From a virus (Duplodnaviria; Heunggongvirae; Uroviricota; Caudoviricetes), in the IMG/VR virus record IMGVR_UViG_2663763054_000004: DNA of 8,419 bases; one strand, 5' to 3'. Below, one piece after another: positions 6,001 through 8,419 of this stretch; position 1 is the stretch's first letter, and each line of letters opens with the position of its first letter. Position numbers: made by a program.

Positions 6001-8419
6001 CGGGGCGCTACCGTCAGGTGGAACAGCAGTATCATCAGTTAATCTGGCTTCAAAAGGTCGGGTAGCCGCGCTGACAGACAATACGCAGGGGGCAGCAGGT
6101 CTTGAGTTATACGAGGTGTATAACAACGGATATCCAACAGCGTATGGAAATATCATTCACCTGAAAGGGATGACAGCCGTTGGCGAAGGTGAGTTACTCA
6201 TCGGCTGGAGTGGTACAAGCGGTGCTCATGCTCCGGCATTTATTCGTTCACGACGGGATACGACCGACGCAAACTGGTCGCCGTGGGCGCAGCTTTACAC
6301 CTCGGCTCATCCTCCTGCAGAGTTTTATCCAGTCGGTGCACCAATCCCGTGGCCATCAGATACCGTTCCGTCTGGTTATGCCCTGATGCAGGGGCAGACT
6401 TTTGACAAATCTGCTTACCCGAAACTTGCAGCCGCTTATCCGTCAGGCGTGATCCCTGATATGCGTGGCTGGACGATTAAGGGCAAGCCCGCCAGTGGTC
6501 GTGCCGTATTGTCTCAGGAACAGGATGGCATTAAATCGCACACCCACAGCGCCAGCGCATCCAGTACGGATTTGGGGACGAAAACCACATCGTCGTTTGA
6601 TTACGGCACTAAATCCACGAATAACACCGGGGCGCATACGCACAGTCTGAGCGGCTCTACAAGTTCAGCTGGGGCCCACCAACATAGTCAGACTGGGCCC
6701 AGAACGAATAGCGGGAGTCAACCTACTGGAATGTTTCCGGCAGGGAGTACTCAAGTTAGCGGGACTAATCAGGTTGGTATCAGTGGCTCATTAACCAGTG
6801 GCACCTCCCAATGGGTAGGTAAATCATCTTCAGAAGGAAACCATACACACTCACTGTCCGGCACAGCAGCATCTGCGGGTGCACACGCGCATACTGTCGG
6901 TATTGGTGCTCATACGCACTCTGTTGCGATTGGTTCACATGGACACACCATCACCGTTAACGCTGCTGGTAACGCGGAAAACACCGTCAAAAACATCGCA
7001 TTTAACTATATTGTGAGGCTCGCATAATGGCATTCAGAATGAGTGAACAAGCACGGACCATAAAAATTTATAACCTGCTGGCCGGAACTAATGAATTTAT
7101 TGGTGAAGGTGACGCATATATTCCGCCTCATACAGGTCTGCCTGCAAACAGTACCGATATTGCACCGCCAGATATTCCGGCTGGTTTCGTGGCTGTTTTC
7201 AACAGTGATGAGTCATCGTGGCATCTCGTTGAAGATCATCGGGGTAAAACGGTTTATGACGTGGCTTCCGGCGACGCGTTATTTATTTCTGAACTCGGCT
7301 CATTACCGGAAAATGTCACCTGGTTATCCCCGGAAGGGGAGTTTCAGAAGTGGAACGGCACAGCCTGGGTGAAGGATACGGAAGCAGAAAAACTGTTCCG
7401 GATCCGGGAGGCGGAAGAAACAAAAAACAGCCTGATGCAGGTAGCCAGTGAGCATATAGCGCCGCTTCAGGATGCTGTGGATCTGGAGATCGCAACGGAG
7501 AAAGAAACCTTGTTGCTGGAAGCTTGGAAAAAGTATCGGGTGTTGCTGAACCGTGTTGATACATCAACTGCACCGGATATTGAATGGCCAGTAGCACCTA
7601 TAGGGTAAATTCGTAATGATTACCTAAATACGTTATTCTTTTGTTAAAAAAGTGATTTTGCTATAGGTAGGGAGTATGTTCTTGGATTAAGAATAAAAAA
7701 TCGCCATGAAAGAGCTTCATGGCGAGTACATAAACGTACAAAATGTGATGAAAGTAGAGTGGCGTAAGCCACTATATTAAGATATGACAATAGCGAAGAA
7801 AAGTAAATAACATTTTATGGACGTTTAATTGTTAATTATAAAAACTAGAGTGCCCGATATTGTTTATCTTGCTTTAAAATAATGTACTCAAACCAAATTT
7901 TTGAGCTAAAAGCTCAAATAATATAAATGCAATAATAATGTTTAATAAGACAATTAGCTTGCTTTGTATTTTCATTTCGGAATACTGTTAAGTAACTTTG
8001 ATGACCCTAACAATAGATCGGAATTTTCTTAGAGTCAATGGTCACTGTTTTTGCTTGCAAAGCAAATGTTTTGGTGGTTATAAGTCGTCTTAATATAGTC
8101 ACGCATGCAACTTGTTCCATGCGGAGATTAAAGATTGGAATATAACGCGAAGATGGAATTAAATTACATTTGCAATAATTAATTTATTATTACTCAATAA
8201 TTACCGATATTATTATTGTAAATTAATCATTAGAATGCAAAAAGAAATGTAACGGCAAAATAAGAGGACGATAGCTGAGAAAAAAGCGTGCTTTCCCAAT
8301 CTGGGGCAAATCACGTCTGAATGACACCTGAAAACAGGTGGTAGCCTCAAGAAGGCTGGTGATGCTGCCAACTTACTGATTTAGTGTATGATGGTGTTTT
8401 TGAGGTGCTCCAGTGGCTT

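Follow-up and report, generated by a model that had tools for sequence, protein, structure and literature searches.

The DNA considered here, 8,419 nucleotides (nt) of a Caudoviricetes record in IMG/VR (IMGVR_UViG_2663763054_000004; the whole stretch is called the window below), ends inside an insertion sequence. Nucleotides 8358-8419 are the left end of an ordinary IS1A-type element, a textbook insertion sequence that is already annotated. It lies in the b region of a lambdoid prophage, next to a short palindrome at 8325-8340. The reading that we favour, with a probability of roughly 0.8, is that IS1 inserted into this region and that adjacent deletions then ran over a fossil attachment site (attR) of a phage that integrates at the tRNA gene serU, the palindrome being older than the insertion.

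The identity of the element is not in doubt. Nucleotides 8358-8419 (GGTGATGCTGCCAACTTACTGATTTAGTGTATGATGGTGTTTTTGAGGTGCTCCAGTGGCTT) match the first 62 nt of IS1 at 62/62 positions, which cannot be chance; the reference was the complete element annotated as 'IS1-like element IS1A family transposase' in Escherichia coli 20Ec-P-124 (locus L001, 9759-10526). The first-pass annotation had recognised the IS1 left inverted repeat and the beginning of insA here, with the correct coordinate and orientation, and its 'beginning of insA' is literally true if minimal, as 7 nt of the gene are inside the window. The parts of the element are as follows.

8358-8419, plus strand: first 62 nt of an IS1A-type element, with the left inverted repeat (IRL), a promoter-like site and the insA start
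8358-8380, plus strand: IRL of IS1, 23 bp, GGTGATGCTGCCAACTTACTGAT, identical to L001 9759-9781; 17/23 positions match the right inverted repeat (IRR)
8365-8392, plus strand: promoter-like site CTGCCA-16-TATGAT (sequence scan)
8413, plus strand: GTG start of insA

Beyond the window the sequence runs on as IS1. The same allele is found in IMG/VR contigs L009 and L010, which share the three private single-nucleotide polymorphisms of the window (8086, 8180 and 8235) and are 99.95-99.99% identical to it from 1892 onwards (about 6.5 kb); L010 extends IS1 by 28 nt past the window end, continuing as insA, and its final 35 nt translate as VASVSISCPSC. Complete 768-bp IS1 copies with an identical junction are present in five homologous loci (L001, L003, L004, L032 and L053), and in every homologous locus that runs through the element insA/insB' continues to 768 bp. 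In L001 the Pfam domains are Zn_ribbon_InsA (1.3e-21), HTH_Tnp_IS1 (4.7e-31) and DDE_Tnp_IS1 (3.2e-77), and RefSeq annotates a 'programmed frameshift' for IS1 of the homologous loci. The element therefore resembles IS1 (IS1A/IS1R type, insA-insB', -1 frameshift) in its left end, IRL, insA start, length and imperfect IRR, in the zinc-ribbon and helix-turn-helix (HTH) domains of InsA and the IS1 DDE domain, and in the frameshift. Its host DNA is AT-rich, and IS1 prefers AT-rich DNA. It differs from a standard IS1 insertion in lacking an 8-9-bp target duplication, and the DNA beside it has been deleted or exchanged. Short-read assemblies break at repeats such as IS1, and 10/12 IMG/VR loci with this junction, including L009 and L010, end inside IS1; the window very probably ends at such a break, and its source contig probably also ends inside the element. 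An exact-pattern scan of the GTDB representative genomes for the source of the window gave no match.

The junction between flank and IS1 is present in 79/5,426 complete E. coli genomes, as counted with a balanced query of 200 nt of flank and 200 nt of IS1. A query consisting of 92% flank matches 280 genomes, and these are the genomes carrying the AT-rich region rather than a count of the junction. The last 120 bp of flank are the same on all backgrounds examined, while tfa, the tail-fibre assembly gene upstream, differs by up to several per cent. The sequences point to one insertion event, which would later have been moved onto different tail-fibre modules by recombination.

The target duplication, as the first-pass annotation said, cannot be assessed within the window, and near-identical loci show none. 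Extension past IS1 in the homologous loci gave the full 768-bp element with its flanking 8-9-bp direct repeat absent. In L001 the order is ...CCTCAAGAAGGCT, IS1, CTTATTGGCTGT..., with no 8- or 9-bp repeat, and the left flank AAGAAGGCT is not repeated in the right flanks CTTATTGGC (L001), AATTGGGTG (L032) or CATTCCATG (L004). All loci that could be read across IS1 to the far flank are without a duplication (L001, L003, L004 and L032, and L062-L064 by annotation). This does not argue against the identity of the element, because a duplication belongs to the event of insertion rather than to the element. The missing duplication is explained by loss of adjacent DNA, which becomes visible in the IS1-free allele at the same chromosomal site. 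STEC313 (L002) is one of 97 genomes with that allele, which the phages ev099, PhiR70_1 and mEp332 have as well. Compared with it, IS1 stands in place of 550 bp (L002 14538-15087). By alignment with K-12, these comprise about 110 bp of AT-rich DNA, a 3' fragment of serU (the 3' 62-63 nt of tRNA-Ser(CGA), from the anticodon stem to CCA) and a serU flank of about 285 bp, which is about 97% identical to the chromosome directly downstream of serU, towards yodB. From its sequence, the lost segment is the fossil attR of a serU-integrating lambdoid phage together with host flank. The first-pass annotation had IS1 interrupting or bounding the AT-rich region; the element does lie in that region, but it is not a simple bound, since in the IS1-free allele the AT-rich DNA runs about 110 bp further into the fossil attachment site.

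The left junction is identical throughout, and three types of right-hand junction were found.

L001 type: CTTATTGGC.. after the IRR; 550 bp lost; seen in H2, H5, H7 and H17
L032/L062 type: AATTGGGTGG.. after the IRR; a further 191 bp lost (741 bp); IS1 ends 14-15 nt before the ATG of an AraC-family regulator gene
L004 type (STEC409), 9759-12222: IS1 joined to DNA of another chromosomal location, with a truncated htrE and the yadV-yadN-folK-pcnB-dksA region

The first or second type is present in 76/79 genomes. The AraC-family regulator (L001 10733-11476; L062 4541-5284; L006 4082-4834) has YdeO as its best NCBIfam match, at 147 bits and below cut-off. Its ATG is 206 nt from the end of IS1 in the L001 type, as against 14-15 nt in the L032/L062 type, which has lost the predicted native promoter of the gene (L002 15231-15260). 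The suspicion in the first-pass annotation that everything beyond IS1 may be rearranged was thus well founded, with no duplication, 550 or 741 bp missing, and htrE beyond the element in one genome. The promotion of adjacent deletions by IS1 is well known, the gal region of E. coli providing the classical cases, and the process is recognised by one end that stays fixed while nested deletions start at the other. The combination of a fixed left and a variable right junction agrees with IS1-promoted deletion, or rearrangement, of the DNA next to the right end: one end and its flank stay fixed, and deletions of 550 bp and then 741 bp extend from the other. Unlike the classical cases, the series here is reconstructed from natural alleles and not from experiment.

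We infer the following order of events. IS1 would have transposed once into the outermost of a set of arm-type repeats of the fossil site (..AAGGCT/TGGAATATT.., the slash marking the point of insertion). Deletions from the IRR into the neighbouring DNA would then have removed the right-hand copy of the duplication and the 550 bp, and certain lineages would have lost another 191 bp, to 14-15 nt before the YdeO/AppY-like AraC gene. The link to htrE would have come about, in one genome or more, by recombination with a second IS1 copy. The htrE junction of L004 implies a large IS1-mediated chromosomal rearrangement in STEC409.

A single copy without duplication, exactly the L001 structure, could also arise if two IS1 elements inserted in the same orientation (..AAGGCT/ and /CTTATTGGC..) and homologous recombination deleted the 550 bp and one IS1. 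IS1 does hit the region repeatedly, as an independent IS1 abuts the same AraC gene in strain B-JRPT-4119. We nevertheless consider this route improbable: neither a single-insertion parent nor a two-copy parent is present in the 5,426 genomes, the L032/L062-type junction would require a third insertion and a second recombination, and nested right end points with a fixed left end are typical of IS1-promoted adjacent deletion. A simple, unrearranged insertion with a normal 8-9-bp duplication meets no contrary sign inside the window, the far end being outside, but it is very improbable, as synthetic junction queries for simple insertion at either end point (the IRR followed by AAGAAGGCT-TGGAATATT) found it in 0/5,426 genomes and the loci read through to the far flank, all without a duplication, refute it for the homologous loci. 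The one 100% match of these queries belongs to an unrelated IS1 in a different prophage, at a distance of 215 bp.

The DNA immediately left of IS1 contains three hairpins, which have to be seen in relation to the fossil site.

8280-8317 (stem 8286-8317), minus strand: hairpin A with U-run, GACGUGAUUUGCCCCAGAUUGGGAAAGCACGC then U6, intrinsic-terminator-like
8325-8340: the palindrome (hairpin B), CACCTG (8325-8330), aaaa, CAGGTG (8335-8340), between hairpin A and the fossil P arm
8343-8357: hairpin C, AGCCT-caaga-AGGCT, abutting IS1; its last two bases, CT, start a P1-like CTTGGAATAT

Read in order, the fossil site of the IS1-free allele has a terminator resembling lambda tI (hairpin A), then the palindrome, next a P arm that carries CTTGGAATAT repeats, and after it the 3' 62-63 nt of serU and the flank. 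A true serU prophage is found in strain uk_P46212 (L012 and L015), where tail genes, hairpin region, arm, serU fragment and host DNA are contiguous, and int adjoins the intact serU at the opposite end. Phage SerU-LTIIb has the arm and the core in common with serU prophages. Phages of the ev099 type have their real attP and int further to the right than the serU piece, which in them is a fossil and, in the simplest explanation, a relic of aberrant excision. The serU 3' fragment and its flank of about 285 bp are also seen in the b region of the functional lambda-site phages ev099 (L007) and PhiR70_1 (L008) and in L002 (14648-14990), and this arrangement looks like a relic of an excision similar to that in specialised transduction.

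By joining attR (L012 3940-4258) to attL (L015 about 37200-37414) of uk_P46212, the attP of such a phage could be reconstructed. Its core is the 62-63 nt identical to the serU 3' end as they stand in IS1-free alleles; in the IS1 alleles examined the core, which would lie beyond the window end, is deleted. The core copies of attL and attR differ at one position (CTCCACC versus CTCTACC), which could help to place the crossover. Arm-type repeats of the form CTTGGAATAT (CTTGGAATA(T)) are found in the P arm at -112 (direct) and -48 (inverted), and three tandem copies in the P' arm, at +46, +56 and +69 counted from the tRNA end, fall within the 3' part of int. The palindrome is at -143 to -128 and hairpin A at -182 to -151. 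A 9-mer of the palindrome, ACCTGAAAA, recurs inverted just past the third P' repeat. The 2 + 3 layout of arm-type sites (P1 and P2, then P'1 to P'3), with the P' sites overlapping int, is like that of lambda attP. The site is unlike lambda attP in that the core comes from serU and is not the lambda core, and in that the arm sites are here predicted from sequence. The IS1 junction cuts the outermost, P1-like copy of CTTGGAATAT, only the first 2 nt of which (CT, 8356-8357) remain in the window. We read 8280-8357 as the putative outer edge of the fossil attP, with the tI-like terminator, the palindrome and the first bases of P1. In strain AST19 (L013 4001-4215) the hairpin region and P arm are followed by only the first 13 nt or so of the serU core and then by unrelated DNA, which carries a cytosine methyltransferase and a type II restriction endonuclease; the module with the attachment-site arm has been recombined there.

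Hairpin A was compared in 57 copies from 55 loci plus the window, a small sample. In the window the A6 on the plus strand gives U6 after the stem on the minus strand, and the stem has -9 kcal/mol; the variants range from -7 to -20 kcal/mol with U-runs of 6 to 9. The stem is kept in all lineages and all 10 sequence classes, and paired changes occur: between L052, with a perfect 11-bp stem, and L016, a U-A pair is replaced by C-G, and seven loci have coupled T-to-A and C-to-T changes. A simple consensus terminator scan missed the hairpin, its stem having bulges. From its conservation, hairpin A is a real minus-strand structure that resembles an intrinsic terminator. In the reconstructed attP its U-run ends 278 nt past the int stop codon; the corresponding distance of lambda tI is 274 nt. 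By analogy we propose that it is the equivalent of lambda tI in a serU-integrating lambdoid phage and is present as a fossil in this prophage. It is like lambda tI/sib in being a minus-strand hairpin with a U-run just outside the outermost arm-type site and in being parted from int in the prophage, but it has no sequence similarity to lambda tI. No extended sib-like (RNase III) stem was found by eye around hairpin A. Among Rfam matches in this region, one to MicC (E = 0.93) is a chance match, and the tRNA-like matches fall on the serU fragment.

The palindrome had been described in the first-pass annotation as a perfect 6-bp inverted repeat and is present exactly so. It is unchanged in IS1-free alleles and in the true serU prophages, and therefore predates IS1 and is not a part of it. 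In the AT-rich stretch of 749 nt, perfect 6-bp stems that close loops of 3-8 occur 13 times (nested stems counted), compared with 2.3 +/- 1.8 in local shuffles, and stems with at least four G/C pairs occur twice, compared with 0.03 expected. The palindrome is only weakly exceptional for AT-rich DNA, being one of many hairpins there. At least part of 8187-8357 is contained in about 960/5,426 E. coli genomes. Beyond the carriers of the whole segment there are about 690 genomes, most of which match 8273-8357, and in both of the two genomes inspected this piece is directly left of a serU-type arm. The left arm and loop are invariant in all lineages sampled, where the search pattern had partly fixed them. 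The right arm is absent in four loci with a different downstream sequence (L016 near another tRNA-Ser gene, L017 near ompW), and in these the homology stops right after CACCTGAAAA. Two right-arm variants, CAGATG and CAGGTA (three loci each), can pair only as G.U on minus-strand RNA, and among the loci compared there is no double compensatory change. Most plausibly, the palindrome is a pre-existing piece of the fossil attP edge and a putative minor hairpin in the int-sense, minus-strand transcript, just upstream of the tI-like terminator. Inherited from the phage, it would have at most a minor role, and none in the present prophage.

It is quite conceivable, though not what we favour, that the palindrome is a chance inverted repeat at a mosaic junction, functionless on either strand. 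Homology to L016/L017-type phages ends exactly after CACCTGAAAA, so that the arms belong to different modules, and 8.4 kb of DNA would be expected to contain about two 6-bp stems for each loop length; the fold scores given below are not significant either. This is countered by the six variant loci, all of which keep minus-strand pairing through G.U, and by the invariance of the left arm and its flank, with the same restriction from the search pattern. A functional DNA site, bound by a dimeric regulator as its operator or by an accessory protein of the serU-type attP, appears unlikely. The palindrome is a perfect 16-bp dyad of the kind bound by HTH dimers, located 16 bp outside the outermost arm-type repeat, its 9-mer has the inverted copy beyond P', and G/C-rich stems such as this are rare in the surrounding DNA. 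However, CAGATG and CAGGTA break the dyad, related phages that have other attachment modules lack the right arm, SerU-LTIIb lacks the palindrome altogether, and no candidate binding protein was identified. A minus-strand open reading frame (ORF) of 55 amino acids crosses the palindrome in IS1-free alleles and is hypothetical in ev099; it was treated as spurious, no database search having been made with it, as PhiR70_1 annotates a different ORF and there are no protein-like features.

Several points weigh against the reading in which IS1 inserted, deleted its right-hand neighbourhood and left an older palindrome with a putative minor role. The window stops at nucleotide 62 of IS1, so that its own right-hand junction is outside. 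No intermediate with IS1 and its duplication was found, and the order of insertion followed by deletion is a matter of parsimony and not of observation; an allele with the IRR and AAGAAGGCTTGGAATATT, if it exists, would favour that order. For the palindrome, the 96 nt around it have no significant folding energy (z -1.4 to -1.8), the left arm was unable to vary in the IMG/VR sample because the search pattern fixed it, there are only two kinds of right-arm variant, and strand-specific conservation of G.U pairs, though suggestive, does not reach significance (p about 0.25). SerU-LTIIb is without the whole palindrome, which is therefore not needed for serU integration. None of the hairpins had an Rfam match in window 7400-8419 or in the IS1-free allele.

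Hairpin C is probably a chance feature, to judge from other lineages, in which its left arm is GGACT or GGCCT with no compensating change. As a target-site structure for IS1 it was rejected, since it is not conserved.

The IS1 copy and the loss of adjacent DNA are already known, the element being annotated in 79 complete genomes and the loss being known IS1 behaviour, and the finding matters little beyond annotation. It does follow from the three right-hand junctions that DNA past the junction cannot be assumed to be colinear with reference prophages. The reconstructed attP of serU phages, with its core, 2 + 3 arm-type repeats and tI-like terminator, is a by-product of modest value, and the nested IS1 deletions nearing a prophage-borne AraC-family regulator are a clear natural example of their kind. 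A more far-reaching possibility, which we hold to be rather doubtful, is that hairpin A and the palindrome form a tI/sib-like, int-distal terminator and retroregulator of widespread serU phages, that the fossil at the lambda site stems from an ancient aberrant excision that carried the serU attR and host DNA into the b region, and that stepwise IS1 deletions have moved the AraC regulator off its own promoter to 14-15 nt behind IS1, altering its expression in some lineages. If true, this would be of modest interest.

The remainder of the window sets the scene for the insertion. Its ORFs, according to Pfam assignments, are the tail end of a lambdoid prophage.

First block: C-terminus of J, lom and a truncated stf (Pfam)
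Second block: a second J fragment and a truncated lom (Pfam)
3938-7027: full-length stf (Pfam)
7027-7608, plus strand: tfa, tail-fibre assembly gene (Pfam Caudo_TAP, E = 4.6e-44; homologous loci annotate a tail fiber assembly protein)
7609-8279: AT-rich non-coding spacer downstream of tfa, 28-35% G+C (composition and ORF scan)

As tfa is the last late gene of the lambdoid prophage, IS1 is placed in the accessory b region, which is dispensable and non-essential. Between tfa and IS1 there are about 750 bp of AT-rich DNA with no credible ORFs, and within the spacer (7609-8279) no ORF of at least 50 amino acids was found. E. coli prophages, like the phages ev099, PhiR70_1 and mEp332, have kept the spacer at about 99% identity. 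In the complete genomes examined, the prophage with the junction occupies the lambda attachment site, with ybhC/ybhB on one side and bio on the other, and to the right of IS1 there follow the YdeO/GadX/AppY-like AraC-family regulator, IS remnants, ybhB, bioA and bioBFCD.

It is worth noting that longer hairpins than the palindrome are present nearby, at 7701-7725, 7900-7918 and 8050-8066. Two of them (7725-7701 and 7918-7900) are terminator-like with T-runs on the minus strand, two being found where 0.4 would be expected, and the second overlaps a minus-strand ORF at 7874-7975 that encodes 33 hydrophobic amino acids, MKIQSKLIVLLNIIIAFILFELLAQKFGLSTLF. These hairpins and the ORF may represent a small RNA, a small toxin-like gene, or nothing. 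Rfam gives a match to IS009, a catalogued family of candidate small RNAs, at 7400-7568 on the plus strand (177 bits, E = 4e-44, above the gathering score), where it overlaps the coding sequence of the 3' part of tfa.

The tail-tip module is partially duplicated in tandem (1-1250 versus 2590-3839, and 1328-1468 versus 3834-3975), in the order J C-terminus, lom, stf N-terminus, then J fragment, lom and stf. At 96.5-97% identity the copies have diverged and are not fresh. The junction between truncated stf and J, near 1749-1892, was found in 0/5,426 complete E. coli genomes and is present in IMG/VR contig L009, with 852 extra bp.

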